A stretch of DNA of 64,000 nucleotides, from contig PS015109.1 in the NCBI GenBank assembly GCA_048213135.1, forward strand, positions 71,413 to 135,412, in the 5' to 3' direction. The translations under genes and the position numbers were made by a program. Under the pieces are notes generated by a model. The model made no database searches. It was not told the origin of the DNA and was given only the letters and a program-made list of their open reading frames with translations. This DNA is from Reclinomonas americana ATCC 50394 (taxonomy: Eukaryota). Below, piece by piece: positions 3,001-61,500 of the stretch (its first letter is position 1; each line of letters opens with the position of its first letter).

Positions 3001-6000
3001 CCGGTGAAGGTCAGCGCCGAGTCGTCGGCCGCCGAGCTCACCGCCGGCGAAATCGACGTCAGTGACGGTGTGGCGGCAGCGGTATACGAGAACGTGGAGC
3101 CCGTCGGCAGCGGCGTCGAGTTGCGGATTGTCACGTACACGGCCAGATCGGCCTGCGCGGCGCCGGTCGAGCTGGCCGGCGTCAGGCACACGAATTGCTG
3201 CAGCGACGGCGTGCCCGTCACGGTGCACTTGGGACCGGTGGTGGTGCCAATGGTGACGACAATGTCGGCCGGATTGGTGGAGAATGCCGAACCGGAAATG
3301 AGAAGCGGCGTGCCGCCGTAGATCGAGCCGGTGGACGGCGACATGGAGCCGATCGAGGCCTCATACGAGTGTGTAATGGTGCTGGTGGCAAAGCCGTAGG
3401 GAGACACCAGAACCTGCACGGTGTGCTGGCCGGCGGGCAGCGCGTTCGGGGTGACAAACGTGATGGTCACGTCGCCATTGGGGGCGACCGTGGTCGAGGT
3501 GATCTGGCACGGCACGCCACCCAACAGCACCGTATTCTCGGTGGGGTCCTCCGAGAAGGTGCCAGTGATGGTGCGCGTCTTGCCGGGGCCCGTGGTGGCC
3601 GCCGCACCCGACTCGCCAGTGCTCGTCGCCACCGGAGTGAGTGCCGGCAGGTAGCTGAACTGGCAGCTGGTGATGTCGGAGCAGGAGCCGAGCACGCCAT
3701 TGACCGTGGCGCGCACCTGCGGCACAGGCGACACCCACTCCAGCTGCTCGCTGTTGACCAGCATGAAATTGTCGAAACTGCCCTGGTATTCCTCCGTGGC
3801 CAGAGCCGAGGCCTGGAATCCTTGCTGTGCAGCGGGGAAGGAAGAAGTGGGGATGAGTGGGAGGTGAAGGTGGGAGGAGAGGAGAAGAAAAAGAAAGAGA
3901 TGCAGAAAAAGGAAGAAAACCAAGCTTCACTATCCCCTTTCACCCCTCCCGACAACTCACCAGTGTGGTACCGTCGACCGTCAGCAACTCCACGTCGCCG
4001 AGCAAGTCCTCGAAGATGATGCGATAGGTGAGGAGCTCGCGTGAGTTGCCCCACTTGCTGACGGACACGTTGCCGACGGTGCTGAGCTTGCTCTCCATGA
4101 GCACCTCCAACTGCTCCGGGCGCACGTCGTAGCTGATGCCGCTGAGCGTGTCGTCGCCAAAGGAGATGGACCAGGTGCCGGCCATGGGAGCCGACGGCGG
4201 AGATGGCTGCGAGCAGGTGCAAGTGACACCGGCAGAGAAGCTGAAGCCGCTGGCGGGACCGCACTGGAACACGGGGCGCGGGCTGTACTCGTTGACGAGG
4301 AAGGTGACCTCGATGGTGAGCAGGGCCTCGCCAGTGCTGGGATCCACAGAGGTGGCCTTGGAAACCGACACGTTGTTGACGGGCACGCCAACCACACCCG
4401 AGGGGAATTTGAGGGCCTCAATGGCCGCTTCAATGGCAGCAGTCGTCGAAGTCGGCAGAATAATCGCACTCTGCAGTCCGTCGTAGTAGAGGCGGATGCC
4501 GGTGGGATTGGTGCCGCGCACCACCACACGCTGCACCTCGCGGATGACAGTGACTTGCAGAGTGATGTCCTGCACCTCGCGGAAGTTGTCGCTGCGCGGC
4601 TGGTCCGAGGGCGAGCGGACCCACACCTTCAGGTACTCGTCGCCGTCGCCCTGCTGGTACGACACCTGTTCATAGGGAGGGGCGCAAGGGTGAGTGATGA
4701 GGGGAGGGGGAAAGGGGAAAGGGGAAAGGGGAGAAGAGAGAGGTAATGTCGAAAACGAAGTTGACAGAGATATACGGACACACACAAACACTCGTACAGA
4801 GAGCGAGAGAGAAGAGAATAAGTTCTTTTGCATCACCCTCTCTCTCTTTCTGCCCGCGCTACGCAACATCGATAAAGTAGGCTTTGGTGGCGTCCAGCGT
4901 CACCGTGGTGCGCTGACCCGTGCTGCTCAGAGGCCACGACTCGGCACCGTACGCGGTAAAGGTGGAGAGCACCGCCGACAACGGCGACTCATTCGAGTAA
5001 ATGGTCATGACGGCGTTGTCGTCGTGCTGCAGGTAGAACGTGTGCGGGCCGGATGCCAGCGGGCGGAAGATGCCGCGCACGCGAGAGGTGTAGCGCGTGG
5101 TACCGTACTGGAAGTCGAGGCTGCCGAGCCAAATGTCGTCAATGGTCGGCACGGCGTTGGCGGCCGGCAGGGTCGGTGCTGCAGCGTCGTTGGCGTACTG
5201 GTAGAACTGACGGCGCACACCGCGGCCACCCGAGTACTGCACGCCGGTCAACTGCTGCACGGACGAGAGAGGGCCGGTGCGACACACGATCTCATCATAG
5301 TCGACAGGGGTGGGGCGCGTCTGTCCGCGCGTCACCGACAGCACCGTGCACGGCGAGCCACTGACGTCGACCACCGCGTTCTCCGCGATCTTGGTGAAGC
5401 CGGATCCGTGGATGGTGAGCACGGTGCCGCCATTGGTGGAGCCAGCGGCCGGTTGCACGCTCGTAATGCGCGGCACAACGGCAAAGTCGTAGACCGTGCC
5501 CTTGCGGTTGTAGAGGACGTTGCGCGGGTTCTTGATGGCGTTGCCGTAGTTCTTGATGTTCATGTTGACGCGGTAGTAGCCGGCCTCGTTGTCTTGCACG
5601 CGGCAGCGCGGCTCGCCGTAGGTGTAGGAGCCGAGATTGTTGTTCATGTTGAGCGGCGAGTCGTGGAGACGATCCGCCGAGTTGAAAAAGTAGTTGAGAG
5701 ACCAGCCCTGCGAGACGCCGTTGGTGGTGTCGGCCAGCGGATTGTTCTGACCCATCGAGCACTGTCGGTCGCCGATGCTCATGTCGATAATGTTGTCAGG
5801 GGAGGAGGTGAAGACGCGGCCGCGGAATTTGACCAGGTCGCCAGCGGCGCCCGCCTGCGGGTGCGCGTTGTACAAAATGGGCGTGGCGCTGAAGGCGTAC
5901 TTGTATACACACATGCCGTTGGCGTCCTTGACGACGCAGTTGGCGTAGCGCTTGTGGTCGATTTGCACGAGGAGGTCCACCGGGGTCTAATAAAAGGGAA

Positions 6001-7451
6001 AGGGTGAGATGAAAGGCGGAGAAGGGGAGGGACGGAGGGAGGGAGGGAGGGGAGGAGGATGATTGAGCAGAGAGCAAAGAAGTGAAAGGAGTGACGTGCG
6101 TATTGGGAGAGTGAGTGAGTGTGTGTGTGTGTGAGAGAGAAAGAGAGAGAGAGAGTGATACTGAAACGCAACATTGGTGTCCTTGCCCGGCGGCGCCATG
6201 CAGACAATTTGGTAAAAGCTGCTGTAGTGATGCATGGCCATGCACGGCTTGCCATCGATCCACACCTCATTCTGCAGGAGACATGGGGAAAATTGAGTGC
6301 CACGAATGAGGAAGACATGACAGAGGGAGAAACACATTACGCAACTGCACCCTGGTAGGTGTCGTCGAGCGAAAAGTTGTCGCCGGCGATCGTCAGCCAC
6401 GTGCCGCCAGCAACGGAACCTATGAATTGGAAAGAGAAGGGTGAATGTCACGGAGGAAAAATGGGGGTCGAGGGGAGGCGAGAGAGACTCACCGACAGTG
6501 GGCGTAATGAGCGTAATGTGAGGGTTGATGTCCTGCAACGAGAGCACAAGGTGAGGAAAATGAAGGGGAAGAGAGCGAGAGAAAGAAGGGAGACAAGGAA
6601 GCAATCAAAGTGAATTCCACCGTGTACAATGAAATACAGCAAAGAGCGGAAACGAGTTGACGTGCGCGCAATGGAGTGCGGATCAATGAGTGCAAAGTCG
6701 ATAACAAGTGCACAAAAAGGCACAGAAAAGTAAAAGAGGATGGAGAAGAGCAAGGAAGAGAAGAGGAAGAGGAGAGAGCAACTCGGGCACGAAAGTTGCA
6801 AAATACACACATGCGCAGAAACGAGGTGTAAAGTAGAGAGAAAGACCAACAAAAAAAGTGGAGCACCACGAGAATAGCGAGAGGAGTTGAAGTCCCTCGC
6901 GTGGAGTGCGGATCCATGAATGAGTGGAATAAATCGACAACAAGAGCATCATGACCGCATGTGCGACAAAAAAAGACACAGAGACGCGCAGAGACGAATG
7001 AGTGAGAGAAGAAGAGGAAGAGGAGTGAACAACTCGCGCACAAAAAACACAAAAATGTGTGAAGCACAGAAAACAAACGCGCGCGCACACACACATAAAC
7101 AACAAAGAAAGAAAGAGAGTGAGAAGAGAGAAGAAGAGAGAAGAGCAATAAAAGGAGGGTGCACAAGTCGGAGTCGGGTGAAGGAAAATTCACCCGCGAC
7201 TCATCAATACACAATGTGCATGTCTTTTCTCTCTCTCCCTCACTCACCATTTGATCCAACTGGTCATCGCCCTTGCCGGAACCCGACACCGACAAGGCTA
7301 AAGACAAACAGAGAGAGAGAGAGAGAGTCAGTGACAAAAAAAAGTTGACTTTGTGTGTGTGTGTGTGAGTGTGTGTGTTTGTCTCACCGAGTGTGAGCAG
7401 CACCAGCAACGCTGCAACAAGCGCGACAACACGAGTTGTTGTCGTCATCAT
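1..7451 (-). CDS. Large secreted/surface protein, fibrocystin-L (PKHD1L1)-like N-terminus (TIG/IPT, PA14, further TIG domains) followed by tandem spherulin-4/GH135-like domains; multi-exon, 3' end beyond the left edge
   Basis: Signal peptide MMTTTTRVVALVAALLVLLTLG at 7451-7388. Spliced exons give TIG motifs (ITLITPTVGSVAGGTWLTIAGDNF; PRITSVQPAAGSTNGGTVLTIHGSGF; PSTGSIYGGTPLLISGSAF; PRQGSVNGGQLVTIKGGFF) and a PA14-like segment (YTSRVRGIFRPLASGPHTFYLQHDDNAV...YFIDVSYQQGDG). Spherulin-4-like motifs follow (AIVNPVDGP, ILGYVDT, LDGIYLDN, GIGNVFVT). GT-AG introns such as 829-901 and 1926-2009 keep the frame. Confidence 0.85.
6640..7080. repeat. Imperfect intronic tandem duplication (~230-250 bp unit, 2 copies)
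   Basis: GGAGTGCGGATC occurs at ~6673 and ~6903, and GAAGAGGAAGAGGAG...CAACTCG at ~6760 and ~7011. Confidence 0.7.
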
Positions 7452-8820: not shown

Positions 8821-11372
8821 CTATTGTTGTTGTTGCTGCTGCTGTTGCTGCTGCTGCTGTTGTTGTTGTCGCCACAACGCCGCCACCTCCTTCACCGACT
8901 CTGAAAATTCGCGTCGCTCCTCCAGCACGCGATCGAGCACCAATCGCTTGAGGTTCTCCCGGCCGAGCCCATACTCAAAGCCGACATAATTCTGGTGCAC
9001 AAACACCGGTGTCTCGGCCACACTCCACGGCTCCCGACGCAAGTACACCTTGGAGTTGGCAAAGAGAATGCGGTCCATGACACGCACTGTCACGCGACGC
9101 GCATTGCTACTGTCCACGCGCAGTGCATGCTCGTTGAATGCCTGCTGATCCCACTTGCGCTCGACACGCAGCGTGTCGGCCACGGCCTCCAGCAACGTCA
9201 GCGTCTCTGGCGAGGCGCGTACGAGAAAGAAGCCGGCGTTCAGCAACACGTAGTGCAGCTGTCGCTCCAGGGGGTGGTACTTGAACGGCTGCGTGGTCGA
9301 GTCGATCATGGTCCACTCGTCGAGTCCATAGGCGGTCACGTCCGACCACCCGTCGGTGCTGCACTCGATCGAGCTGTCGCGATGCAGCAGTGGGAACGGG
9401 TCGCGCAGGAACACAATGTCGGTGTCGGAGAGGAGTGGGTTGAAGCCGAGGCGCACGATGCGGGCCAGCAGCGCCCACTTGAAGGAGGAGACCATTTGGC
9501 GGCGGTCGTGATAGCCGGCCACGGAGGGGGGTTGCTGGATGGAGGGGAAAGGGAGAGAGGAGAGGAGAGGCAAAGGTTGAGAGGCTTTGTGGCAACCCCA
9601 CAATCAAGCGAAGGAAGTGGAATGCAGAGGAGGAGCGCAGCGACACATCCACCGTCAACGGCCACAGGCGAGCCATCAAGTTACGGAGGTGAGGAAGAGA
9701 CAGAAAACGTGAATGCAGAGGAGTAGCAGCACAGCGACACATCCACCGTCACGTGAGGAAAGTGATCACGATAAGAGAGACATACAACGTGAACGAAGCG
9801 GAGGAGTTGCACAGCGACACACGCAATCAACCCCACCATTGATGGCCACAGGCGAGCCATCATCAAGCGACAGAAGTGATAAGAGAGGCAGACAATGTGC
9901 ATGCCGAGAAGGAGTCGCACTGATGGCATCGTTCCACAATCGACAAGTCGCACGTCGAAGAGCAAAGTCTCTTGAAATGCACCACACTCACACTGCCAGC
10001 AGCAAGAGGTCGAAAAGCGAGAGAACGGCGCACAGAGGAGTGGGATGATCCAGGAAACGCAGCTTGAGGACCAAGACACGGTCACACACATAAGCAACAC
10101 GAGAATGGTGAGAGTGTTTGCGACGGCCTATTGCCAAACGCGCCACCATCAGATATGACAACATGAACACCAAGGTCCTCTCCCGAGGGCGCCACCATAA
10201 GTAGAACACAGCCAGCACACAATAGGATTGCAGAGTGAAGGACAGGCAGCATCCATCTATCAAGCCGTGCCACCCTCCCACGCACCACTCTCACAAATCC
10301 CACAGACTGTCGACGGCAATAGTCGGCACACGCGTCGTCCAGCGCCAGCACCATCAGGTTCTGAATGCCGGCGGTGCGTGCCGATTCGATCCACATGGGC
10401 AGCATGGGTTCGCCGCCACCGCCCCCGTGCTCGGCGCCGATAAAGTTCTTATCGGACATGGTGATCAGCACCTCCTGGTGCTCGTTGGCCACCGACTGCA
10501 ACACCGTCAGCAGGTCGGCGTCCTGCGTGCGCGAAACACGCTGTGAGGCTCATGATGTGGCACATTCATCTCCCTATGAAGCAACGCAACACCGGTCGTG
10601 TCCTTCTCGTCGACCGCCACGCACCGCGAAACGGCGCGCCGCGCTTCACTCATCGACGGCAGAGTCACCGGCTTAGCGGCCGGCAACGCCGCCGGTGTGG
10701 ACGGCGACGCAGAGATGGTGGCGCCGTCGGTGAAGACAGCCTGCATGCATGCCGCACGCGACGCAATGTCCTTGCGACCGGGTCGCACCGCCTGACAGTG
10801 CACGGCTACGGGCACCGACGCACGCGAACCCACCAGTGACTTGTCAAAGAACGATGTCGCGGTGCGGTAGCGTGACCAGGCGAGCTGCGACACCGAGAGG
10901 CGCGGATACCGTGGAAACACGGGGGAAGCCGGGCGCAGAACGGCGGCCGTCAGCGCCTCGGTTTCCACCACTTGCTGGCGAGCGAGTCGATCGCGCACCA
11001 TGCGGAGGAACTGTGTGCAGGCGGCAAAGTGAGAGTCAGGAAGAGAAGCGCAGGGACGCGAAGAGAGCGATAATGCAAAGGGAATGAGAGTGCACGCTGC
11101 AAGAGAATTGCAGTGACATGAAGGGAGCGCAGCAGTAGAACAGAGAGAATGAGAGTGCACGGTTGAAGTGATATCGAACACACACAAAGGAAAAAGCAGA
11201 GCGATATGGCTTGCTGAGCGCAACTCGACACCAAAGACACAAGCAAGCAGAGCCATCGTCTACACGATGACTTGTGCAACAGCAAGGTGACACAGAGTGA
11301 CTACTTGCTGAACGATCCAGGTAAAGTATGCACAGTTATCGCCCACTCACTCTCTCTCAAAGAAAGAGAAAC

Positions 11373-11413
<41 letters not shown>

Positions 11414-11415
11414 CG

Positions 11416-11447
<32 letters not shown>

Positions 11448-11640
11448 ACTACTAACTACTAACTACGTACTACGTAACTACGTACTACTACGTACTACTA
11501 CGTACGTACGTACNNNNNNNNNNNNNNNNNNNNAGTACGACAGAGTAGACGTACTTAGTCTGAACGAAGTACCACGGTAAAGGTAAGTTAGTCACACGTT
11601 ATTACGTCCCACCTCACTCTCTCTCAAAAAGAAGAAACAA

Positions 11641-11678
<38 letters not shown>

Positions 11679-13234: not shown

Positions 13235-13289
<55 letters not shown>

Positions 13290-13515: not shown

Positions 13516-13608
<93 letters not shown>

Positions 13609-13635
13609 CTCTCCGTCGTCTCGTCGTGTCGTCTC

Positions 13636-13700
<65 letters not shown>

Positions 13701-16711: not shown

Positions 16712-16795
16712 CGTCGAACGAACTTGACAGGATTGACGACGAAATTTTAGATTTAGTATCCGACAGAAAAGACTATTGCGTGTTGCGTGCCAACC

Positions 16796-18441
16796 ATGGA
16801 CGAGTTCCCACACATCACAAGCAAGGATCTGTTCTCCTCATATGTTGCGTGCATGTCCACTGCGCTGTGTGCGTTGTTGCAGTCTCGAGTCCATGCACAC
16901 ACACACACACACTCTCTCTCTCTCTCACAGCGATCTCGCGCTGTTGTTGTCAGCCGCGTCACGCTGGTGGCCTGCAAGAGAATCATGCCTCCTTCTCATG
17001 AGAAGGAGGTGCTGGCCAGCAGACACGCTCTGCTCGAGTCACGCCACTTTTGCAAGTGTCTCTATATGGCCGCCAATCCCACCGCCACCCTCGAAACTGC
17101 AGCCGAGCAAGCAAAGCAGCTCCATCCCGACGGGTTGAGTTGGTGGTGCTTTCCAGCTGAGGCGGCGGCACGTGACGAAGAACTGCGGCCGCTGAAGAGG
17201 ATCATCGACATTGGACATGGCAATCCACCAGATCCTGTACGTGGCATGCACGAGTGTTGTTGTCAGTACGCGTGTTTCTCACACGCAGCGTGTGGTTGCA
17301 GGGCATCGAGGGTTGGGAGGTTGTTCACTTGCCTCCACCGCATCCGTGGTCGCCGAAGCTGCAACGAACGTGGCGACAGGCGGTGTGGACGGCGATTGAA
17401 GAAGCGTGTGTCGCCGAGGACAGCAATGTTGTTGTGGCGATTCAGAGTCCATCTGGACTCGACGATGTTGGTGCGCATGCGTCCAGTTGGCTTTCGCACA
17501 AGCGCACTGCTTACTGCTTCGTACAGGCGAGATGATTGTCACCTACTTGCACTGCAAGCTTGCCTGGCCACCTGCAGAGGCCTTGGCAGCGTACTGCAAC
17601 ATGGATGGCACCTCGCGGTTCGGCAGCGACGGTACCATGTTCCAGCAACTGTGCGATGAGTTTCGCATGCCGATGCCTGCGTCCATGCCAGCCGCTGACA
17701 TTGTTGGAGACGGCCTTATGGACGACGAAGCTCTCGCGGCCGCAGTGGACGAAGAAATCCGAGCGGCCGAGGTTTGCAGTGCATGATTGTGCTCCTCTCT
17801 TGCATCGTGCAGTGCACTGACCGGTGCGGGAACAGGTTGAAAAAGAAGCGACTGCTTTCTTTGCGGACGAGCTGCAGCCGTTTCATCTGCGTTGCAAAGC
17901 AGCAATTGCTACATTCGAAAGGCTGGCAGACGAAAATGCCTTGCCTCCGCTGCACCTGCATCATTTCCTGCGACGTGTCATCCGAGACTTGATCGGTTCA
18001 TTATCGAGCGAAGGCAATCGAAGTGACCTGCTGTTAGCTCGTGAGGTATGCACCAAGCTGCCGCGTGACGACCGAGAGCGTGCGCTGTTCAATTCGGCAA
18101 TTTCCGCCTTGCTGGCCAAGGGAGAGGATGCGGAGGAAAAAGAAGTCGCCGCTGAAGTAGACGACGAATTGCAGATGGCATATTCGACTTCTCCATTGCC
18201 AGACTGCGGTTTCAAGTCGGGCAATTCGTCAACCGCCTCGAGCGCTTCTGATGGATCGTCAAGCTCGAGTGCTCTGTCGGGGTCGTCCGTCACTTCGCTC
18301 GGTGCCCCCCGTCCGCGAGGCGCTTCTGCGACGTTGACGATGGCCGCCGGCAGCGTACCCGTATCACCGCCGAGGCCTTCGCAGTCTGCACCGCAAAGCC
18401 CGCTGCCTGCTGTTCCGAGTATGATGCATGATCATGAATAA
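16796..18441 (+). CDS. RNA 5'-triphosphatase/DUSP11-like (PTP-fold) protein, probable pseudophosphatase, with helical and Ser/Pro-rich C-terminus
   Basis: Exons 16796-16843, 16931-17236, 17302-17470, 17527-17771 and 17836-18441 splice in frame. The product has motifs in RNGTT triphosphatase order: TLVACKRIMPP, LKRIIDIGH, IEGWEVVHL, VAIQSPSGLDDVGEMIVTYL..KLAWPPAEALAAY, FQQLCDEF. Confidence 0.65.
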
Positions 18442-44700: not shown

Positions 44701-47700
44701 NNNNNNNNNNNNNNNNNNNNNNNNNNNNNNNNNNNNNNNNNNNNNNNNNNNNNNNNNNNNNNNNNNNNNNNNNNNNNNNNNNNNNNNNNNNNNNNNNNNN
44801 NNNNNNNNNNNNNNNNNNNNNNNNNNNNNNNNNNNNNNNNNNNNNGACGAGCATGGTACCGTCGGCGAGGCACACGATTCCACCAATGGTGGAACGCCAA
44901 CCGGCGGTGTAGAGATCGCCATCCACGTTGCCTGCCGATGCATATGGATCGTTGACTACCGTGGTCACGGTGCCGTCCGGCGCAATCTGACGGATAATGG
45001 CCGCCGGAGCACCACCATCGTTGCTGCGATCGGCGGCGTAAATATTGCCGTCGGGGCAAACCGCCAGCGCGGTGATGACGTTGAATGTGGCGGCCACACC
45101 GATAGAGTTGTCGGAGGCGCCGGGGTTCTCCGAGCCTGCCAGGCGACTCCACGAAGGCACCAAACGCACCGAGTTGCCACCGTCGGGCACGTACTCCATA
45201 ACAATACGGTACAAAGCGTGGCCATCGAGGCCAACTCCGGCACTACTGTTGTAGTACACGGTGCAGTCGGCGGGATCCACGGCCACCACCGATGGCTCGT
45301 TCACGTTGAAGTCACTGGCCTTGCCACTTATTACGGGCGTGCCACTCACAGACGCCGACTTGACAACAAGCGTTTGCACTTCCATCGATACCAGATCGAT
45401 GAGGCGGAGTGCGTTGTTTCCGGTATCTTGTGAGTGCGTGATTGTTAGTGATNNNNNNNNNNNNNNNNNNNNNNNNNNNNNNNNNNNNNNNNNNNNNNNN
45501 NNNNNNNNNNNNNNNNNNNNNNNNNNNNNNNNNNNNNNNNNNNNNNNNNNNNNNNNNNNNNNNNNNNNNNNNNNNNNNNNNNNNNNNNNNNNNNNNNNNN
45601 NNNNNNNNNNNNNNNNNNNNNNNNNNNNNNNNNNNNNNNNNNNNNNNNNNNNNNNNNNNNNNNNNNNNNNNNNNNNNNNNNNNNNNNNNNNNNNNNNNNN
45701 NNNNNNNNNNNNNNNNNNNNNNNNNNNNNNNNNNNNNNNNNNNNNNNNNNNNNNNNNNNNNNNNNNNNNNNNNNNNNNNNNNNNNNNNNNNNNNNNNNNN
45801 NNNNNNNNNNNNNNNNNNNNNNNNNNNNNNNNNNNNNNNNNNNNNNNNNNNNNNNNNNNNNNNNNNNNNNNNNNNNNNNNNNNNNNNNNNNNNNNNNNNN
45901 NNNNNNNNNNNNNNNNNNNNNNNNNNNNNNNNNNNNNNNNNNNNNNNNNNNNNNNNNNNNNNNNNNNNNNNNNNNNNNNNNNNNNNNNNCCACCGTGGGC
46001 GACATTACCGGATACCCGTCGTTGCCATTGACCAGGCCATTGGAGCCTGCCGTGCCCGCCAGCGTGGACGCAGTGTACTGACCGGAGCCGGGCATAGTTT
46101 CGGTGAGACGACGCACAATGTGCGTGCCCGACTGCGTCGTCGTGCAGCAGGCAAATGAGGTCACACGAGCATGAGAATGAATAGAGGAGCCATATGCAAC
46201 AACACAACGCAACATCAGTCACGTAAAAGTCCAGAGGTCCGCTGTAGTTGGGCGTCAGAGCCGTGTACGGCGGTGGACCAGTCACGATACTGACTGGAGA
46301 TGAGTGCTTGCCTACGGAGGGACCACCAGCTGTCGAGCCCGCCATGTTGGCCGTGCCGGAGAGGATGGCGGTCATGTAGTCGAAATCGGTGTGGTCTGTT
46401 GTATACTGAAGATCCACCGTTGCCGCCTCGCCAAAATTGTTGTACGCCGCAGTAACGGTGACGGAGGTGTTGGTGGCGGTGCGCGCAGACACATACGTGT
46501 CTTCGAATGTGGGGCGTTGAGCGGTGCGGAACGCGGCAGAGAGAGTTGCGTGCCACATGACAGGCAGCGACTTGAGAGTCACCGACGACGGATCCACAGC
46601 GTACTCCGACGGCTGCGTGCGCACGGCTACCATGCGGTAGAGCACCAAGGTGTTCGGCGCCAGACCTGTCACCGAAGCACTCACAGAGTTGACGCTGGAG
46701 AGATCGGTCAGCGGCGTGGCCGCCGTCAGGTGGGTCACGGGCATCTGAATTCGCCGGATTGAATCGCTGGCAGCCTGATCACAAGCAAATTCGTGAGACT
46801 GCTGGCACAATGCGGAGAGCCATAGGGCATGAACCACGCAACATCCGCGACATAAATTGCTCGATTGTACTCGTCGAACACCAGTCCGGTGGGTAAATTG
46901 AAGGAAGCCAAGGGTCCATCTGTGTTGCCGAATTGGAAATAGCTGCCGGCTAGCGTAGTGACAGACACGTTGTTGTTGAGGAGGCGAATCTCGCGAATGG
47001 TACCAGCAGAATCCGACACGACGATGCGACCACTGCGTTGACCAATCGCGATACCCTCCAGCTGCTGGAACCGAGCCGAGTTCTTGTCGCCATCAGCACC
47101 ACCGTTGGTTGTCACACTACCGGCGATGGTCACCACAGAGCGCGCGTAGGGGCTAAACACTCGCACCGTGTATCGATCGCAAATGAACAGTTGCCCGCCG
47201 GAATTCACCGCCAGTCCACTAGGCCTGGTGAATAGCGCCCCTGTGCCAGTGCCGTCCACAGTGGAGGGTGACGCGAACATGGAGGGGTCACCGGCAACAG
47301 TATTGACATAGCCTGCGGGGCGACAGAATAGTCAAAATAGAGGGCAAGGCGACGACAAGAAGGAGGAATGGCGTGCGTACCAGTGGCAGGGTCGTAGCTG
47401 CGGATAACTTTGATGCCCGCGTCGGCAATGTACAGAACTCGGCGGTTCTGGTCGAACGCCAATTCCACCGGCGTACCAAATCGCGCATCCGTCCCAAAGC
47501 CATCAGTGTGCATGGTACCGACTGTGAAGGTACCAGCCACTGTCGACGTGACGCACGGTGTTGACGAGCAGTCGAGGCGGCGAATGGAACGATTTGTCAC
47601 GTCGGCCACATACAAGTGTGAACGATCGCGGTCCCACGCCAACCCTTGTGGATGACAGAAGCGCGGTGGCGAGTCGGACATGGGGTCGCAGGTACCATCA

Positions 47701-50597
47701 TGACACGAACCGTAATCATACAAAGAACCGGTGCCGAGCGTCCACGCCGTAATACAGTTCACGGATTGCTTGGTAATGTAAAACGTGGTGCTGCCTGAGC
47801 TGCTGTCCGTCTGCACAATTCCCCGGGGGTAAAAGGGCACGCCAAGGACCGTGTATGTGGTCGGCTTGAAGCTCCACTGATCGGTCGTATACTCGAATGC
47901 CGCGCTCATGAAAGACGACGCTCCGAGCGTGGTGGCCGTTCCCCGAAGCGTAGCGCTCGTGGCCGTCCCATCCGCCGCACCCACTATTGACAGGGAGGGC
48001 AAGAACCCGGTGGAACACACACCACCAGTGGTGGCGCGCGACAGCAACTGAGTGGAGGGATTGCGCAACATGAAATTGACCGTGTACGAACTCGCCGGCG
48101 CCAGATCCTCGATGCGCACCGAGAACGACGTGGTTGAAGTCGGAAAGGTGGTGACGTAGATGCGAGGGCGGCGTGGTAGCGACGCAGTGCGCAGCGTCTG
48201 CGACGAAAAGGGGGAGGAAAGGGGAAAGGGATTAGAAGGGAGGGAGGAGAGGGGAAAGGGGAGGAGAGGGAAAGGGTACACGAAGGAAGGGGAAAGGGGA
48301 TGAAGGGGATAAGGGGAAGTGAGCGAGGAAGGGAGAAACAGAGAGAGGGAGGTAAAATGAACTCGACGAAGTGGCAGGAGGAGAGCGAGTAATATGGGAC
48401 AGGAGGGATTGAGTGACATCGAGAAAGTGAGGGAAACACGCGACAAGAAGATGGAAGTGAAAAAGGGACAGCAAGAGAGTACCTACATGAGCTCGATGTG
48501 ACAGGAAGAGACTGAGTAATATTAGACAGGGGGAATGGAGTGACATCGAGATAGCTCTCTCTCTCTCTCCCTCTCTGAGAGGGTACGCAACGTGCGCAAC
48601 GCGGTCGACAATGATCACTCGATACGGTGTGTCACTGATGTAGACCAGATCGGTGGGCGCCAGAAACGCCGCATTGGCCGAGCGGCCGTCCATGTTGGCA
48701 TTCACACTCGGGTTGCCGCCCGCAGTGGTGACGGCTCCGAGAAGGGTCACTTCTCGAATGACTCGTGCGTCGCGGTCGGCCACCAGCAGATAGCGAGTTT
48801 GCTCCAGCTGGTTGTTGACATAAGTGATGCCAGTCGGCGCCGTGAATCGCGCCGCACTGCCGACGCCATTGGTCACACCAGCGGCGGCTGTCGGGTCGCC
48901 GGCAATCGTGTCCACAGCGCCCGACGACAAATCGATCTTGCGCACCACCCGCGCCGTCGTGTCAGTGAGGAACAGGGTGGGCGTGCCGGCGAGATCGGCC
49001 ATGACCATGCGGCCGGGTGATACGAAGCGCGCATTCGTGCCGACATCGTCGACATTGGCCGACATGCCCAGTGCGCCATACGGCGTCGTCACCACAAACG
49101 TGCTGCCGAGAACAACGCTGACCTTGCGAATGGCGTTGTTGCCGGAGTCGGCCACGTACAAGTCGTCGAAGGACGAATTGTTGGAGTTGCGCGCCAGACC
49201 GCTGACGGTGGATGAGAAGCGCGCCGCCGCGCCGGTGCCGTCACTGGAGCCGCAAGTGCCCGCCGTGCCCGCAAAGTGTGAAATGATGCCCGTGGCGCCG
49301 GTGATGTTGATGAGGGAGCAGGAGGACTGGAAATAGGGGAAGGGGGGAGGAGGGGGAAGGAGGGGGCAAGTAAGGGGGAGGGGAAGGAAAGGGGAGGAGG
49401 GGAAGGAGGGGGGAGGAGAAGGGGGAGGGAGAAGGAGTAGAGTAGAGAAGGGGGAAGGAGGGNNNNNNNNNNNNNNNNNNNNAAGAGAGGGAAGAGAGGG
49501 GAAGAGAGGGGAAGATGAGAGAAAGAGGAATGAGATGGAGAGAGAGCGCGCGAGAGAGAAAAGAGAGAACAAGAAAGAGACGTTCAGACGAAGAAAGAGC
49601 GAGAGGGAGAGAGAGAGAAAGGAATGCGAGCGAAACAGTGCGTGGAGAATGAGACTAGGAGAGCAAGTGATGACGATATGAATGTGTGTGCTAGACTCTC
49701 CGCGGACGCAACATCGCCGACAAAAAGCGCAGTGGAGGATGTGGCGTAATCGCGGCCGACAGCCACAACAACTGGCGACGACAGCTTGCCGACACCAACG
49801 GCGCCATTCGTCAACCCCGACGACATTAGGGTGCCGGCGTAGGTGGCCGTGTTGCCACTTACATCCAACGTGCGGATCACGTGATTGTTTCTGCACAGAG
49901 GGAAGACACAGAGAGAGTGTGAGCGACGAAGGAACGATCGACATTGGGAAGACAGCAAAATCAACAGGAAAGTGGCGTGGAGAGAGAGCGATGCAAACAG
50001 GAGTGAGAGTTAAGGGAGCGACGAAGGAGCGACTAACATGAAGAGAGAGGTAACGAGCAACAGAGTTGAGAGACAGTTACAACGGAGTGACAGAGATGCG
50101 ATGGCAGGAGCGCGATGCCAACGACAAGGAGGCAATCACAGGGAGAGGAACAGCGATAGAGATGTGGCACACACACACACGCAAGTGACTGCAACGCAAC
50201 GTATCCGCGACATACAACGTGCTCGTCACCGTGTCGTACGCCACACCCGATGGCGTATCAAACCGCGCACCTGTGCGCTGTCCATTCGTTGTGCCCGGCG
50301 TGGACACACCGCCAGCAAAGGTCACCACATTGAGCTGCATGTCATCGCCGATACCATACTCGGCGTAGAGATTCGTGCCAGCCGGTGGTGAGAACCCATT
50401 CAGATTGATCGTGCCCGACAGAGCGCAGCTGGTCGGATCAGAGTGCATGGTATCCGACGACGACATCGAGAAGGTCGGTGTGGCAATCAGCCCATTCACC
50501 ACATGCACCACCATCAGCAATGCCGCAATCAACCAAATGGATGCTGATGACGCGCGGAACGACGAAAAGGCGCGTTGTCGATGCGCGTGTGACGCAC
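23768..50597 (-). CDS. Giant polycystin-1-like receptor: signal peptide, FN3-like/NHL modules, EGF, Cys-containing Ig-like repeats, REJ, GPS, about 5 TM helices (5' end approximate, several gaps)
   Basis: Signal-like SIWLIAALLMVVHVVNG at ~50540. Many NHL repeats (GxxDGxGxxARFxxPxG). EGF (CFNGGTCDNGVTGTGGCFC). REJ (VNDLPTAGNLTVTPSSGEERLTKFTF...FRDPD). GPS CVYWNTTTETWRNDGC...CECTHLTDFS at ~27660-27535. TM1, then the PKD1 signature EEHSWVS...FRRTQKLT, then LPLWLVPVSF and SDVLVNEPIK. Stop at 23768-23770. Treating it as one gene is inferred from domain order and strand. Confidence 0.8.
36538..38310. repeat. Near-identical ~300 bp coding duplication (36538-36840 versus 38004-38306)
   Basis: Both copies encode NLLAGSVVLRGSVNANNGSATPVFDYSSVSEADVLAGNGVTVSASG...TTYYFRVRDTASGVAS with few substitutions. 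Confidence 0.9.
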
Positions 50598-51865: not shown

Positions 51866-52309
51866 ATGGGCGTCGCGTCTTCCTCCGCAACAACCACATC
51901 CACCACCACAACGACGACCACGACGACTGCGGCAGCCTCTGCAGCGCCAGCGGGCGCACCGTCGTCGTCGTCGGTGATGGCCGATGAGGACTTTGCGCAG
52001 GCGTCGAGCGCCAGCTTGCCGGGCGAGAAGACCGTGGCGAAGAAGACGCTGCGACAGAAGGTGCTCGATGGGTTGCGCACGGGAGCGTATCACTGTTGCG
52101 TTGCACGAGGAGACAAGAGTGGTGAGCCATGTCGTCGCAACATGTGCACTGACTCTTTGTGTGTGTGTGTGTCAGTGGTGATTCCGGGTCTGTTGTTGTA
52201 TGGATACTTGTCGGAGCCGTCGTACTCTCTGTGGGAGTTGGTGAGCCCGTTGCCGCAGAACCCCGAGGCGTTGCAGGCGCAGTCACAGCAGGCAGCTGCT
52301 GCTGAGTAA
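51866..52309 (+). CDS. TOM7: Mitochondrial outer membrane translocase subunit Tom7 with Ser/Thr/Ala-rich N-extension
   Basis: Exons 51866-52094 and 52176-52309 give ...KVLDGLRTGAYHLVIPGLLLYGYLSEPSYSLWELVSPL, matching the Tom7 pattern H-x(2-3)-IP-hhhh-G...EP...L-x-x-L-h-SP. Confidence 0.75.
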   Translation: MGVASSSATTTSTTTTTTTTTAAASAAPAGAPSSSSVMADEDFAQASSASLPGEKTVAKKTLRQKVLDGLRTGAYHCCVARGDKSGEPCRRNMCTDSLCVCVSVVIPGLLLYGYLSEPSYSLWELVSPLPQNPEALQAQSQQAAAAE

Positions 52310-55068: not shown

Positions 55069-55180
55069 GGGCGCGAAGTACAATGCATGACAGGATGCAA
55101 GACACGACAGGACGCGCTGTGTAGTTCCTCTTTGCAGAGCTCTAACGCAGCAGTGTCTTTGCAGTGCATCCACTGCTAGC

Positions 55181-58100
55181 ATGCTGAGTGGACGTCGCTG
55201 GTGGTCGTCCACATTCACCGATGCTCACCAGTTGCATCGGTTCATCTTGAAGGGTGGTGTGCCCCATGCTTCCATCCAACAGCAACAGCAGCGCAGTGGT
55301 GCGGATTGTGGACTGGGAGTGCGGGTTAATATCCATGTGCATGCGAGTGTGCGTGTGCATGCATGCTGAATGGCAGTGCATGCGTATAGATCGTACCGTT
55401 CCCTCGCGCAATGTTTGTCAACACTCCGCATGATGTGCGCGACGTGTTGTTGCCCGACAAGACGAACAGCTTCGTGCAGCTGCAGATTCCTGCGGTGCCA
55501 AAGAACGGGCCCGAGGAGTTTGCATGTCGAGTTGTCACTGAGAGGGTGCCGGCGTTCTTTGGCACTGCTGGCATCGGCAAGACATCGCAGATGACGAGGG
55601 CGGCTGGCAGGCTGGAAGCGCTGCTCGTGAACGGTGATTCGCTCGACTAGAGGGAGAGGCTGCGTCTTGCGTCTCACACTACTCTCCAGCGGGCTACCAC
55701 GTCCACCGACTGGATGTGGCATATGGCAACGCAAGCAGCCTCGGCGGGGTTGCGCAGTGCGAGAAGGCTTCGCCGTTGGCTGACGGCAGGCTGGTCGAGG
55801 CGCCTGCCGAGTTTGTGCAAGCGGCGACTGCGTGGCGGCTTCTGCTGGCCCACTTCTGTGTGCAGGGTACGGCGCGTTTCTCGCTGGTCGACGATGTACG
55901 CGCTGCCTATGGCGACACGTGGTCCATACTCTCCACTGCAGTCGCGATGCAATGCATTCGGCTGGATCTGATTGAGGCCGGTCGTCTCAAGAAAGACGGC
56001 AAGTGCGTGAGGTGTGAACATGCTGTCTGTGCTGCATACATCGCTCACTCTAACAGGTTGGCTGTGCTTTGCTTGATGGACGACGTTCAGAACATCCTGT
56101 ACACGGCAGTGGAGGCAGCGCAGTTGCTGAGGTCAGCCGATCCGACTGCACTGGCGGTCTGTGCACGCAGCAATGGTGCGCATTGCGTTGTTCTTACCAG
56201 CGGTGGTGCACCGCAGTCACTTTGCCGACGGCGTCTGACGCTCGCACTGCAAGCGATGCAAGAGTCTCTCCCACAATCGGGCACAAATGTGGTCTTTCCC
56301 ATGATCGCTGGCGTTGTCACTGTGGATCCGATCGCAGTGGAGTCGACGCTCGCTCTAGTCCCCGGGATTCCACTTGAATTATGGGAGACTGACGAACTGA
56401 TGCGGCGCATGTTTGAGCTCACGGACGCGAGTTGCGTGTGTTTGTGTGTGAAGGAGTTTTCCAAGGTCTCGCTTGGTCGTCGTTTCAAATTTTCGCCGCT
56501 CTCTGTGACTTACTCTAACCATCGATTCCGCAGCAACTGCGCTCACTGGTGTCGGTCTTCCGGCATCCGTCCGCGTGGCCTGGCGTACGAGCAAGGCGTT
56601 GCGATCGGCACTGGACAGTCGTGCTCAACTGGCGCGAGAGCAGATCAAAGTCGTGAAAGCCGCACTTGGTTGCGTGATGGAGCCCCTTGCGCGTGGGTCT
56701 CCGCTCACTCATCATCCTCTCTCCGAGCAGAATGTCTGCAAGTGACTGGCCAAGCTGAAGATGGTGACCGGTGACTTTGTATCCGCCTTGAGCACACTGT
56801 GGTCGCAGCGCTCACTGGTTTCCTTCGCAGGTCGCTCTGTGCTGTCGATTGACGACGGCAAGCTTGCGTGTAATCTGCCCGGCATGGATGCCTCAGTTCA
56901 CATTGAGGAAAAATCTTGCATGCCGCGATCGACGCTGGTAATGTCACAGCACCTGCGGTCGAGGAGGCGGTTGCTGCAGGGCATGTAGTTCTGCGTTTGG
57001 TGAGTTTTCTCCGCCTCATGTTGTGTGTTTGCTTCCTTCATGAGCCTGACTGTTGGGCGATAGACGCCAGACAGCAGGTTCAAGGTGTACGTGCCGCCAG
57101 TGCTCCTCTTGCAACTCTGGGGGACGACTGGCCGATATGCTGCTCTTGTTGCAAAGATGATGTCGTGCGGATTGGATGGCGAAAGGATGAGGCCCTCTCG
57201 CGCGTGGGAGGTGTGGCGGGTGGCGTACGTGTCGATGCAAGTGGAGCGACACATTCCCGTGGCGTCGATGTCGTTAAAGTCCATCTACAGACTGGACGCC
57301 TTGCAAGGTTTGTGCAAGCGCGGTTGATTCGCAGAACACAAGCTCCTCTCACGCTCCTCAGCACCCATCCATGATGTATGGAGAACTACGGTGCGCCTTG
57401 GACAACTGACGCCAGAAAGGACTGTGGACGCGGCAGACATTGTCAGCAGTCGCTGGTCACCACCATGGCTGTCGAAGAACGGACCTGTTGAGGTACCGTT
57501 GCTGTGTACGTTGCTTCCGCCGAGAGGTTGCTCACTCCACGTCGAGCAGGTCTCCAGAGGCCGGTTGTCCGCCGTCTACCTGACGGCCGACAGTGCATGT
57601 GGCTGTAGTTTTGTGACTGCGTTCGAGACTGAAGACAAGCGACGGATTGTGGTTCTTGAACAGTGCCAGCTGCTTTTCCGTGACGCAGAAGTTGTTGCAC
57701 GAGCGCTGCAAAAATTGTACTCGGTGTGTGGTTCGCGACGCTCTTCGGACTCTTCAGGTCGTTGAAATCATGGCGTGCGACACACAGATCGGTCAGTTTT
57801 TCGCGCGAGCCAACACCGTATCGTGGGTTGCCGTGCTGTCATCACCGCATGCGATCCCTGCCTTGCATGACCGCGACTGGGACCGCATCGGCATATCAGC
57901 AGACGATCGCTCTCGGTTCGCCGTGATAGACAAGGCTGTGGCGGCCGAGTACTACGGACCAACTTTCTGCGATATGCCTCTGCGTACGAGTTGCGTTGCG
58001 GAACTTCCATGCCGCATGCGGCAACCTCGTGCTGATCGTGTCGCAGCGCAACTTCGAATCAACTCATCCGACGGCACCGACTCTGCCATCGCGACAGCAC

Positions 58101-58366
58101 TATTCGATGTGCTGATGCTCCTTGTGGGCGACGCGGCAGCAGAAACCGTCAAAATGGAGGTGGCAGTGCTGGCCAAAACGATAGATTCTTCGAAGCCGCT
58201 CACTGGCTACAGATCGGCCGACCACCTGTGTCAAGTGATCGGCAATTGCAACGAACAATCCGCTCGAAGAGTTCTCGACGTTCTGCAACTTGCCGGGCAG
58301 CGGATCGGTGACGCCAATGCCATCAACGACTTGCATTCGTGGTTCACCTTTGTCTTTCGCTTCTGA
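55181..58366 (+). CDS. Crinkler (CR)-type P-loop NTPase plus restriction-endonuclease-fold effector-like protein, multi-exon
   Basis: Walker A GTAGIGKT (~55560), then after splicing VAYGN and AWRLLLAHF; Walker B-like LCLMDDVQ; FPMIAG; GIRPRGL; VPPVLL; WEVW...Y; terminal EYYGPTF. This is the motif order seen in CR-NTPase/CR-REase proteins. Not all introns were resolved. Confidence 0.65.
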
Positions 58367-58536
58367 TGGCCGTGAAGTCTCGACGCATTGAAATGCGCGC
58401 GGGACAAGTGAAGTGCGCTCTGCGTTTGCGTGAGAGTGAGAGAACGAGTCGTGGGGGCTTGCTAAGAGGAGACGGTGGTCAAGGGGAGAGTGTTGGCGAT
58501 TATCAGGACAGGTGAGAGGAGCAATGCAAGAATAAC

Positions 58537-61500
58537 ATGCAACACACAAATGCCACGTTGATTCGCTCACTTATTCACTCAGTCACTCACACACACACAC
58601 ACTCACACACACAAGCACTCAGTCACTCACTCACATGCACACACTTTCTCACTCTCGCATTTACATGTGCACAATCAATCACTGATTTCCTCCCCCTTGT
58701 CTCACTCCTTCTCTTCTTCTCCATCTCTCACTCACTCTCTGGCTCACTCTCCCTCCCCCTTGTCTCCTTTCCCTCTCTTCTTCTCCCTCTCTCACTCACT
58801 CACTCACCCTGCCCCCGCTCATTGCCTTTTCCTTTCTCTTTCCCTCCCTTCTCTCACTCACTCACTCCCACAGCACACCGCCGGCATCACCCTCAAGCGA
58901 CACCTCGTCCACCCCCGTCGCCACCCACTCCACGCCCTTCCTGCTCATTCACCAGTCGACCTCCTCTCCCACCACCGCCAGCGAAGAGCACGGACTTCTC
59001 CTCGGCCAACCCGTTCTCCGTCGTCGCAGTCGCAGTGCCAGTCGCCGGGGTGCACTTGAGGACCTCTCTCCAGCAGTCGCCGTCACTGTTGTAGCGCCCT
59101 TTGCACTTGTTATTGACAGTGCAAGAGAGGAAGGAGAAGAGGAGGAAGAGGCTGAAGAGGAGGAGGAGGAGAACAGCAGCGCCAACAGCGAGCTGGATCG
59201 ACGACAACTCATCGCCAGTGATCTCTACTCGTCGGTCGGAGCAGCAGAGTGGTTGCGTGATTCTCTCCTCCTTCTGCGTCTCCTCCTTCTCCTTGCTCTT
59301 GTGCTTCTTCTTCTTTTCGTTCTTGTTCTTCTCCTTCTTGTTGTTGTTCTTCTTCTTCTTTGTCTTCTTCTTCTTCTCCTCCTCCTTCTTCCTCTTCCTC
59401 TTCTTCTTCTTCTTCCTTCTCCTTTCTTCTCCTTCTTGCTGTCTTTTCATTTCCTTTTCCTCATCCTTCTTTCCTTCTCCTCTTCTCTTCTTTCTCCTCC
59501 TCCTCCTCTTTCTCCACCACCTCCTCCTCCTCCTCCTCCTCCTCCNNNNNNNNNNNNNNNNNNNNNNNNNNNNNNNNNNNNNNNNNNNNNNNNNNNNNNN
59601 NNNNNNNNNNNNNNNNNNNNNNNNNNNNNNNNNNNNNNNNNNNNNNNNNNNNNNNNNNNNNNNNNNNNNNNNNNNNNNNNNNNNNNNNNNNNNNNNNNNN
59701 NNNNNNNNNNNNNNNNNNNNNNNNNNNNNNNNNNNNNNNNNNNNNNNNNNNNNNNNNNNNNNNNNNNNNNNNNNNNNNNNNNNNNNNNNNNNNNNNNNNN
59801 NNNNNNNNNNNNNNNNNNNNNNNNNNNNNNNNNNNNNNNNNNNNNNNNNNNNNNNNNNNNNNNNNNNNNNNNNNNNNNNNNNNNNNNNNNNNNNNNNNNN
59901 NNNNNNNNNNNNNNNNNNNNNNNNNNNNNNNNNNNNNNNNNNNNNNNNNNNNNNNNNNNNNNNNNNNACCCTCGACGTACTTGTGCAGGTGATCCACCAC
60001 CGCGCTAAAGTCGGCAAATGAATCCGCGAACCGGCCATTCCGGTAGTCGAGCAGGCCTGTTGCACAGTGAGATATTACTCTCCTTACTCTCCGTTGCCTT
60101 TTCCCCAATGACGCACCCTTGACCGTCATCACCATGCAGTACTCGAGCAGGGTGCCGAACGGCTCGAGAATGAACTCATTGGCGTCGGTGATGTTGAGCG
60201 GAATCACCACCACGGTCTGTCCGCACTGCGCTGGGGGGTGGAAGGCACTGCTGTCGAGGATGGTGGCCGCCTCGGCGAGATCATTCAGCGCGAGGTGGCA
60301 CTCGGCGAGCAGGGCCACCGCACGCTGCGCGAGGCTCAGACCGGATGCATCGACAAACAACCAACCAAAACAGACAAACAAGAAATCACCTCCGAGTTCG
60401 CATGCTGCACCATGGTGGCCTCGAGCACATCCTTGGCCGCACGCACCGTCGACAGCGCTGCACGGCGGGCCTCCGANNNNNNNNNNNNNNNNNNNNNNNN
60501 NNNNNNNNNNNNNNNNNNNNNNNNNNNNNNNNNNNNNNNNNNNNNNNNNNNNNNNNNNNNNNNNNNNNNNNNNNNNNNNNNNNNNNNNNNNNNNNNNNNN
60601 NNNNNNNNNNNNNNNNNNNNNNNNNNNNNNNNNNNNNNNNNNNNNNNNNNNNNNNNNNNNNNNNNNNNNNNNNNNNNNNNNNNNNNNNNNNNNNNNNNNN
60701 NNNNNNNNNNNNNNNNNNNNNNNNNNNNNNNNNNNNNNNNNNNNNNNNNNNNNNNNNNNNNNNNNNNNNNNNNNNNNNNNNNNNNNNNNNNNNNNNNNNN
60801 NNNNNNNNNNNNNNNNNNNNNNNNNNNNNNNNNNNNNNNNNNNNNNNNNNNNNNNNNNNNNNNNNNNNNNNNNNNNNNNNNNNNNNNNNNNNNNNNNNNN
60901 NNNNNNNNNNNNNNNNNNNNNNNNNNNNNNNNNNNNNNNNNNNNNNNNNNNNNNNNNNNNNNNNNNNNNNNNNNNNNNNNNNNNNNNNNNNNNNNNNNNN
61001 NNNNNNNNNNNNNNNNNNNNNNNNNNNNNNNNNNNNNNNNNNNNNNNNNNNNNNNNNNNNNNNNNNNNNNNNNNNNNNNNNNNNNNNNNNNNNNNNNNNN
61101 NNNNNNNNNNNNNNNNNNNNNNNNNNNNNNNNNNNNNNNNNNNNNNNNNNNNNNNNNNNNNNNNNNNNNNNNNNNNNNNNGTCGCGGGGGGCTTGTCGTC
61201 GCGTGTCTTGCTCATCGTGCATGTGTGTCACACAGATTCATGGATCGGCTGACACCGCGTGTGTTGGAGCGTGTGCAACCATTTTTCGCCTGGCATCTCG
61301 AGCAGGCACTCCTATACACTCCCCTGGCTGCTCACCGCTCTGGGTACGCCCGGTACATTTTTGTGTGTTTTGCTGTCCACTTATTTTTCTTCTCAGCGAG
61401 TCCGCGATGACGGTCCTGCAATTGCATCGCGAGGGCCTCTCCTTCCCCTACAAGTTGCACAAACGTGCGCGGTGGCTGCAGCTCTTCAACTGCGCCGAGC

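Follow-up and report, generated by a model that had tools for sequence, protein, structure and literature searches.

The window studied here is a 64,000-nucleotide stretch of the genome of Reclinomonas americana ATCC 50394 (assembly GCA_048213135.1, contig PS015109.1, positions 71,413 to 135,412), where one and the same heptamer, GTTGCGT, starts an estimated quarter to third of the introns. The word is a frequent 5' splice-site (donor) class in at least five unrelated genes, as a sequence-only reading of this DNA had proposed for the hexamer GTTGCG: a gene with TIG, PA14 and Spherulin4 domains, a gene with Nucleotid_trans domains, a giant gene with NHL and fn3 repeats, CDK11, and at least one unnamed plus-strand gene. 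In the usual explanation, a 5' splice site is chosen because it pairs with the 5' end of the U1 small nuclear RNA (snRNA), which is nearly universal, ACUUACCUG (ACUUAC). We favour, with moderate confidence, the view that GTTGCGT marks a second class of 5' splice sites among ordinary GT-AG introns, and that its UGCGU would pair to a U1-type snRNA with a non-universal 5' end.

The window is eukaryotic, has a G+C content of 40 to 64% depending on the block of 4 kilobases (kb), and contains 14 runs of N. All 14 coordinates at which the sequence-only reading had placed a GTTGCG donor carry the hexamer on the strand it gave, and the next letter is T in every one of them, which extends the word to GTTGCGT. 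Counted simply as a word, the hexamer exceeds chance only slightly and is not clearly enriched: there are 72 copies in the window against 59.3 +/- 7.5 in dinucleotide shuffles, and 4 of the 100 shuffles reached at least 72. The heptamer is found 33 times, against 13.9 expected under a first-order model, and is thus enriched. In the regions of minus-strand genes, its sense and antisense copies stand in a ratio of 15:2.

Genes were predicted with a home-made Viterbi gene finder, which takes its codon log-odds from the long frames of the window with high G+C at third codon positions (GC3) and allows any GT/AG pair. In the flat-donor runs every GT received an identical donor score, and four rounds of retraining updated the codons, the intron composition and the acceptor, never the donor. 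GTTGCGT started 8 of the 54 introns predicted in round 0 and 11 of 64 to 67 after retraining, when every other heptamer started at most three. It makes up 33 of the 8065 GT sites of the window, which gives a binomial P of 6e-15 for the flat-donor choices. The sequence-only reading had asked whether GTTGCG is commoner than independent position frequencies predict, and this comparison came out in its favour: among the 29 flat-donor introns that are free of N, end in YAG and carry a CTNAY motif, 8 start with GTTGCGT against 0.60 predicted (P = 1e-7). With a trained two-class donor model, the heptamer starts 14 of 57 introns. The sense strand of the modelled genes has 17 copies, of which the flat scores use 10 as donors and the trained model 14, the other three being inside predicted introns. 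Among the sites listed by the sequence-only reading, flat scores pick 4867, 6172, 6345, 10590, 46213, 46842, 49712, 50200 and 52095. Altogether, some 21 of the 33 copies probably serve as donors; two lie antisense in exons, none falls in a predicted sense exon, and the remainder are in unmodelled sequence. A test of whether a site bridges open reading frames (ORFs) was passed by 22 of the 33 heptamers and by 2832 (35%) of all 8065 GT sites, and was dropped as donor evidence for being too unspecific. The 21 probable introns, with lengths in nucleotides (nt), and the two further listed copies are the following.

4666..4867, minus strand: GTTGCGT intron of 202 nt, phase 0, in the PA14 region of the TIG/PA14/Spherulin4 gene; flat-donor choice.
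5987..6172, minus strand: GTTGCGT intron of 186 nt, phase 0, in the first TIG domain; flat-donor choice.
6272..6345, minus strand: GTTGCGT intron of 74 nt, phase 0, in the first TIG domain; flat-donor choice after retraining.
10523..10590, minus strand: GTTGCGT intron of 68 nt, phase 0, in a gene with two Nucleotid_trans domains; flat-donor choice, with a CCTCAC branch-like motif and a CAG end.
19797..20929, plus strand: GTTGCGT intron of 1133 nt, phase 1, in CDK11; junction set by homology.
24095..24600, minus strand: possible GTTGCGT intron of 506 nt, of low confidence; trained two-class model only, in a weak gene model of 495 nt.
26386..26447, minus strand: probable GTTGCGT intron of 62 nt; manual parse, chosen by no model, with a GTTCAC branch-like motif and a GCAG end.
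27352..27420, minus strand: probable GTTGCGT intron of 69 nt; manual parse after a 37-nt exon, just 3' of a GPS-like motif.
27688..27764, minus strand: GTTGCGT intron of 77 nt, phase 1; flat-donor choice.
28425..28507, minus strand: GTTGCGT intron of 83 nt, phase 0; two-class donor model.
30287..30583, minus strand: GTTGCGT intron of 297 nt, phase 2; flat-donor choice.
30860..30929, minus strand: probable GTTGCGT intron of 70 nt; manual parse after a 33-nt in-frame exon.
35212..35275, minus strand: GTTGCGT intron of 64 nt, phase 1; two-class donor model.
46132..46213, minus strand: GTTGCGT intron of 82 nt, phase 0, right after the Asp of an NHL repeat; flat-donor choice.
46775..46842, minus strand: GTTGCGT intron of 68 nt, phase 0, after the Asp of an NHL repeat; flat-donor choice.
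48198..48591, minus strand: GTTGCGT intron of 394 nt, phase 0; two-class model and NHL spacing.
49327..49712, minus strand: GTTGCGT intron of 386 nt, phase 0, with a gap of 20 N; flat-donor choice and NHL spacing.
49891..50200, minus strand: GTTGCGT intron of 310 nt, phase 2; flat-donor choice and NHL spacing.
52095..52175, plus strand: GTTGCGT intron of 81 nt, phase 1, in a small gene named Tom7 by the sequence-only reading; flat-donor choice, with CACTGAC and a CAG end.
56431..56533, plus strand: GTTGCGT intron of 103 nt, phase 1, in an unnamed gene; CTCTAAC 14 nt before CAG, spliced frame free of stops.
56669..56830, plus strand: GTTGCGT intron of 162 nt, phase 1, in the same unnamed gene; free of stops with the acceptor at 56830.
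16844..16850, plus strand: GTTGCGT, listed earlier as a donor and not verified; motif present, frame and acceptor ambiguous, no model covers the gene.
59252..59258, plus strand: GTTGCGT, listed earlier as a donor and not verified; the motif follows an acidic open frame and is CT-rich downstream, into the N gap at 59546-59967.

Two of the 14 listed sites, 16844 and 59252, thus have the motif but could not be verified as donors. Several of the other introns deserve comment. Reading through the donor of 4666..4867 gives GTT GCG TAG, and the exon upstream matches positions 5-76 of the 147 of the PA14 profile. At 28425..28507, the flat-donor run put the donor 6 nt upstream, at GTTAGCGTT. On the plus strand, the donor at 56431 was also picked with flat donor scores when the codon model had been trained on exons of low GC3, and for the intron at 56669 the closer acceptor, 56730, gives four stops. 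Hand parsing added the donors at 27420, 30929, 26447, 56431 and 56669, each with an open frame free of stops and with a branch-like motif and CAG end of its own. The intron at 26386..26447 is preceded by a 71-nt candidate exon with its own CT-rich acceptor. The parse of site 27420 is free of stops and frame-consistent (...HLTDFSIDCASVDTAVLHAMFEVSFTFVSPSDV...FYFLLAFNLLYVVAFVFLL), with CACTGAC about 24 nt before CAG; the site was chosen by no model, and the Viterbi runs favoured a single intron of 122 nt there. The parse of 30860..30929 is also free of stops (...DTIITASPGLDLTVVVSGGVVSPR...), and each of the introns flanking its 33-nt exon has its own CTCAC and CAG end, where the models fused the two into one of 285 nt. 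These candidate micro-exons of 37 nt (27421-27457, minus strand) and 33 nt (30930-30962, minus strand), each followed by GTTGCGT, were merged into introns by the gene finder. Around the unverified site at 59252, both strands of 59130-59322 give weak matches to plant miRNA precursors (31 bits, where the gathering score is 100), which are probably due to chance and likely arise because a GA-rich stretch faces a CT-rich one there.

Splicing at GTTGCGT restores a frame that matches homologues in CDK11, retains repeat spacing at five NHL junctions and, weakly, keeps the order of a TIG domain. The CDK11 junction is the best defined. Exon 1 aligns to human CDK11B (PDB 7ukz_A) through residue 29 (GVV) and exon 2 from residue 31 (RAKD), leaving one residue between the exons, a Tyr whose codon is split into T and AT by the intron. 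We fetched 33 metagenomic loci with CDK11 exon 2 and found the glycine-loop motif in 27; the frame is uninterrupted in all 27, with a single Tyr, Phe or His codon at the junction followed by a basic residue, and 25 of them read GVV-[Y/F]-R-A. According to the sequence-only reading, protein conservation sets the junctions of both CDK11 and Tom7. This is borne out for CDK11, by 7ukz_A and the 27 loci, while the name Tom7 could not be reproduced: taken singly, the two exons have no match in Pfam, exon 2 has none in PDB either, and the identity of the gene is not confirmed. The junction at 52095 is probable on the evidence of the flat-donor model and the frame, as the single other GT nearby (GTATCA) disrupts the latter.

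In the giant gene, 27 repeats fit [LIVMF][YFWL][VILF][ASTGVC]D, and their uninterrupted copies continue as D-x-x-N/x-H-x-[IVL]-R. This spacing is preserved at the junctions 50200, 49712, 46842, 46213 and 48591. The first gives LYVADT/NNHVIRTLD (the slash marks the junction), the exact NHL consensus; at 46213 the product FYVTD/SGTHIVRRL retains the D-x3-H-x-[IVL]-R spacing, and repeat spacing is likewise retained in IYVAD/AASDSIRRI (46842) and LFVGD/SSCSLINI (49712). The fifth junction offers a choice, with GTTGCGC at 48600 and GTTGCGT at 48591 lying 9 nt apart in frame on the minus strand. The flat run took the former and the two-class model the latter, and only 48591 yields VDRVAH/TLRT, with His and Arg at their repeat positions. 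That NHL spacing favours GTTGCGT over GTTGCGC suggests that the T at +7 matters. In the first TIG domain, the exons flanking 6272..6345, the second of which also borders 5987..6172, match positions 13-29 and 34-61 of the TIG profile, in order, with E-values of 0.04 and 0.07 that are weaker than the curated threshold.

These junctions bear on the possibility that the class is an artefact or a matter of chance, the gene models, like the sequence-only reading before them, having snapped to the heptamer. The gene finder is home-made and had this window as its sole training data, the hexamer itself is not enriched, and more than a third of all GT sites pass the ORF-bridging test, all of which would be in keeping with such an effect. 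It is nonetheless very improbable, since the donor scores were flat in the runs cited, the heptamer has a sense-to-antisense bias, the CDK11 junction is set by independent homologues and NHL spacing is preserved. The flat-donor choices were also specific to the last letter: GTTGCG followed by A, C or G was chosen at 2 of 16 sites, against 10 of 17 for GTTGCGT, despite the six shared letters.

All 21 probable introns start with GT and end with AG (CAG or TAG), and are 62 to 1133 nt long. They have a CTCAC, CTGAC or CTCAT-like motif 14-30 nt before the CAG or TAG, the same as in other introns; among the N-free GTTGCGT introns predicted by the trained model, 10 of 13 have both YAG and CTNAY. The donor signal is the whole heptamer, and its one-letter neighbours are almost never used: the 15 of them have 61 sense copies in total, with 3 flat-donor calls. 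In particular, GTTGAGT is used as a donor at 0 of 6 sites of the window and GTTACGT at 0 of 3, against 13-14 uses of GTTGCGT. All 21 donors have C at +5, G at +6 and T at +7, whereas 31 of 39 other donors have G at +5. The class also differs in the last base of the exon. G at -1 precedes 1 of 15 GTTGCGT donors and 23 of 39 others (Fisher P = 5.5e-4), and a pyrimidine precedes 13 of 15 and 8 of 39, respectively (P = 1.3e-5). In the flat-donor set, -1 is G for 0 of 8 GTTGCGT donors against 11 of 21 others (P = 0.012). Over all 21 donors, the base at -1 is T in 10, C in 6, G in 3 and A in 2.

The ordinary donors of the window are GTGAGT, GTGAGA, GTACGT, GTACGC and GTGCGT, with 6 GTGAGT, 4 GTGCGT and 3 GTACGT among 26 canonical-looking donors, and a few have T at +3 (GTTTCGT, GTTTGC/T). 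Of the other donors with T at +3 named by the sequence-only reading, GTTTCG was seen twice, and the models contain no GTTGAG or GTTGAT. Donors of the form G/GTTTGC or G/GTTTGT, found at 17772, 25670 (minus strand) and 30776 (minus strand), also have T at +3 and keep the G at -1, unlike the GTTGCGT class; they resemble the GUUUGU type of Entamoeba. A pairing of the intron start with an ACGCAG 3' end was considered and dropped, as it concerns only 2-3 introns.

How could such a site be recognised? The sequence-only reading described it as GTGCG with one extra T, to be bulged on an ordinary U1. More generally, standard U1 might read the heptamer in an odd register, with the U at +2 or +3 bulged or with a shift of one base, aided by U1C or other proteins as in rare human sites. 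GCGT after the extra T is indeed an ordinary donor ending here, that of GTGCGT, and according to Tan et al. 2016 (PMC4856993), human +3 (or +2) bulges and the shifted register are experimentally established; the same paper cites Roca and Krainer 2009 and Roca et al. 2012 for the reading of shifted or bulged human sites by U1. As described there, these sites resemble those of the window in having U at +3, the G-U moved from +5/+6 to +6/+7 and cleavage still at GU. But they are rare exceptions, all validated non-canonical registers making up 1.5% of human sites and the +2/+3 and +3 bulges being predicted at 68 and 51 of 201,541, against one exact heptamer at about a quarter of the introns here, without GAGT or ACGT endings and without G at -1. 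Other observations speak against a bulge on ordinary U1 as well. When the universal U1 end is assumed, no register yields a stable duplex in RNAduplex: GTTGCGT donors give +0.5 to -3.7 kcal/mol, against -4.8 to -9.2 for ordinary donors. Next to an identical GAU exon end, GTTGAGT pairs better than GTTGCGT (-2.7 vs +0.5 kcal/mol), but no copy of GTTGAGT serves as a donor. A generic bulge predicts that GTTGAGT and GTTACGT are used in proportion to GTGAGT, GTGCGT and GTACGT, and neither is. The bulged register would also leave C9 free for a G at -1, which is almost always missing. In view of this, the extra-T description is not supported in the form given, and recognition by standard U1 in an odd register seems to us unlikely.

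The second option of the sequence-only reading was a variant U1 or U6 snRNA. We favour a changed or second U1 5' end, which would fit the data better than a bulged T on standard U1. The invariant positions +3 to +7 (UGCGU) would pair with a U1-type snRNA whose 5' end differs from ACUUAC, in a helix placed one base downstream of the cleavage site, and the GU at +1/+2 would be retained for catalysis. A C that never varies at +5 points to a G in the RNA that pairs with it, and the partner U1 would carry this G opposite the C, either as ACGYAC, as in Mastigamoeba, or as a complementary ACGCAAC on a second U1 variant. In the shifted register, -1 would no longer lie opposite C9, which would explain the loss of G at -1. 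Predicted energies are in line with this model. With a Mastigamoeba-like ACGUAC end, +3 to +7 form a helix of 5-6 base pairs with -4.2 to -5.6 kcal/mol, one base downstream of the normal register; an ACGCAC end gives -6.2 to -7.6 kcal/mol, and a fully complementary ACGCAAC end -9.9 to -11.6 kcal/mol. No snRNA gene was found in the 64-kb window at the gathering or E-value threshold, the only matches being weak, miRNA- or scaRNA-like and due to chance. A more specific version is a dual code within the major spliceosome, in which standard U1 would read G/GTRMGT and a U1 variant or remodelled U1 with ACGCAAC(G/R) would read Y/GUUGCGU by 7-8 contiguous pairs, the two classes being mixed within genes. 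We offer this version tentatively, as a possibility rather than a probability.

A different solution would be that a sequence-specific splicing protein binds the heptamer and the preceding pyrimidine, and recruits standard U1 or the tri-snRNP despite almost no snRNA pairing. The strict invariance of the heptamer, its near-zero predicted pairing with standard U1, and the preference for a pyrimidine at -1, which fits no U1 register, are compatible with a protein-read signal. We nevertheless hold it to be quite unlikely, given that seven invariant contiguous letters from the cleavage site onward are more typical of RNA-RNA pairing and that no candidate protein or precedent turned up in this analysis.

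A rigid 5' splice site next to a degenerate major class also recalls the U12-type introns, which have the 5' splice site RTATCCTT and a dedicated TCCTTAAC-like branch site. The GTTGCGT introns do not belong to this type, as their donor is not RTATCCTT and their 3' motifs (CTCAC, CTGAC, CTCAT) are those of the other introns. The same two facts, together with the usual position of the branch-like motifs before YAG, leave very little room for any separate system resembling the minor spliceosome, with snRNAs of its own. Least probable of all is a family of mobile introns (introners), in which a transposable element would have created the introns and left its conserved end as their common start. 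It would account for the same seven-letter start in many genes and for three NHL-repeat introns at one repeat position. However, an all-against-all blastn of the 21 introns returned low-complexity matches only, of at most 28 nt without dust and two of 14 nt with it. The common 5' ends reach just 9-11 nt, the lengths vary widely, and there is no distinct conserved 3' module.

Several points weigh against the reading that we favour, a second donor class read by a non-universal U1 end. Every junction but that of CDK11 rests on ab initio models or repeat spacing, 7 of the 21 donors come from manual parses or one weak model, and three to five of the NHL-repeat introns are perhaps copies of one ancestral intron, hence not independent. 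In the low-GC3 genes (12.5-27 kb and 52-64 kb), three codon models failed and missed CDK11 itself, so that those genes were parsed by hand or left unmodelled. The pyrimidine at -1 is just mildly enriched relative to the coding background, the strong contrast being with ordinary donors. The RNAduplex energies use assumed U1 5' ends, the universal one being the general consensus rather than a sequence taken from this organism. Ordinary donors have A at +4 about as often as C. This A would not be expected if one U1 with G at position 5 read them all, which leaves room for two U1 variants or a protein factor. Finally, this is one 64-kb window, which may not represent the genome.

Among known systems, the GTTGCGT class is best filed as a variant of non-canonical 5' splice-site recognition. 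Close parallels are described in one preprint (bioRxiv 10.1101/2022.06.08.495308), where Entamoeba has GUUUGUU donors with a co-evolved U1 end, AACAAAC, and Mastigamoeba balamuthi has GUGCGC donors with the U1 end ACGUAC. The former has in common with the window that +3 is U and that positions are constrained as far as +7, the latter that the donor has a C which would need a G in U1. In both, as presented there, a change in the U1 5' end accounts for the atypical donor, which replaces the standard consensus, whereas in the window the heptamer coexists with GTGAGT, GTACGT and GTGCGT in the same genes. The discussion of the same preprint mentions standard and modified U1 candidates for Physarum polycephalum, which shows that a single genome can have two U1 5' ends, as a dual donor code would need; the modified one fits GUAUGU, and the passage reports no link to a GUUGCGU-type donor. 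The preprint also describes atypical donors without U1 change in Thecamonas and Micromonas, the U1 of Micromonas pusilla CCMP1545, the sole one obtained, having no compensatory change. The GYGCGY donors of Mamiellales (Ostreococcus, Micromonas) are GC-rich, near-invariant and end in GCGT as here, without the extra U at +3; the window is not from one of these algae, since its best protein matches are just 34-43% identical. Introns of the diplonemid type were rejected, since the pattern given in PMC12621601, (G)/GTATG or non-GT-AG introns, differs from GTTGCGT. Among the literature matches listed for GTTGCG or GUUGCG(U), which were primers, aptamers and unrelated uses, none presents it as a splice consensus.

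Two codon-usage regimes adjoin in the window, one in 1-12500 and 27000-52000 and the other in 12500-27000 and 52000-64000. GC3 is about 0.8 in the large surface-protein genes and about 0.5-0.6 in CDK11 and its neighbours, and genes of the CDK11 type are missed by a codon model trained on the high-GC3 genes. The minus strand of 26263-52143 holds one or more very large predicted genes, in which the coding sequence exceeds 17 kb and a single exon measures 6.4 kb, and whose boundaries across four N gaps are uncertain. They encode dozens of NHL/teneurin-type repeats and fn3-like units and, in the C-terminal part, a GPS-like C-x-C-x-HLT-x-F motif followed by a hydrophobic helix. The gene at 1-7698 (minus strand) combines several IPT/TIG domains with PA14 and repeated Spherulin4 domains (Pfam), an unusual architecture for which no relative was found among proteins of 654-2000 residues; an ESM Atlas search returned Spherulin4 clusters only. 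Two lineage-specific exons have no match among the longer proteins of large protein collections. The best match of the CDK11 exon has 74% identity, and its named relatives are from Mesostigma and Zostera. For the Nucleotid_trans exon at 8824-9534 (minus strand), 1.84 billion representative proteins were searched exhaustively with HMMER; the best of them reach 34-43% identity across most of the exon, with Prasinoderma coloniale and the diplonemid Namystynia karyoxenos among the named members, and from this it seems that the organism has no close relative that is sequenced and annotated. The 1133-nt intron of CDK11 contains a tandem repeat of 166 nt (20039-20341, plus strand; 1.8 copies, 83% matches), and the long introns of the window are rich in CT and CA microsatellites.

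Lineages that depart from the universal U1, such as Entamoeba and Mastigamoeba, are among the few natural experiments on the co-evolution of snRNAs and splice signals. If the coexistence of a rigid heptamer with ordinary donors holds throughout the genome of R. americana, the possibilities would be a pair of U1 variants, a single remodelled U1 that serves in both registers, or protein-assisted recognition. In practice, about one intron in four of this organism would be annotated wrongly by a gene finder that had learnt its donors from GTRAGT-like sites.

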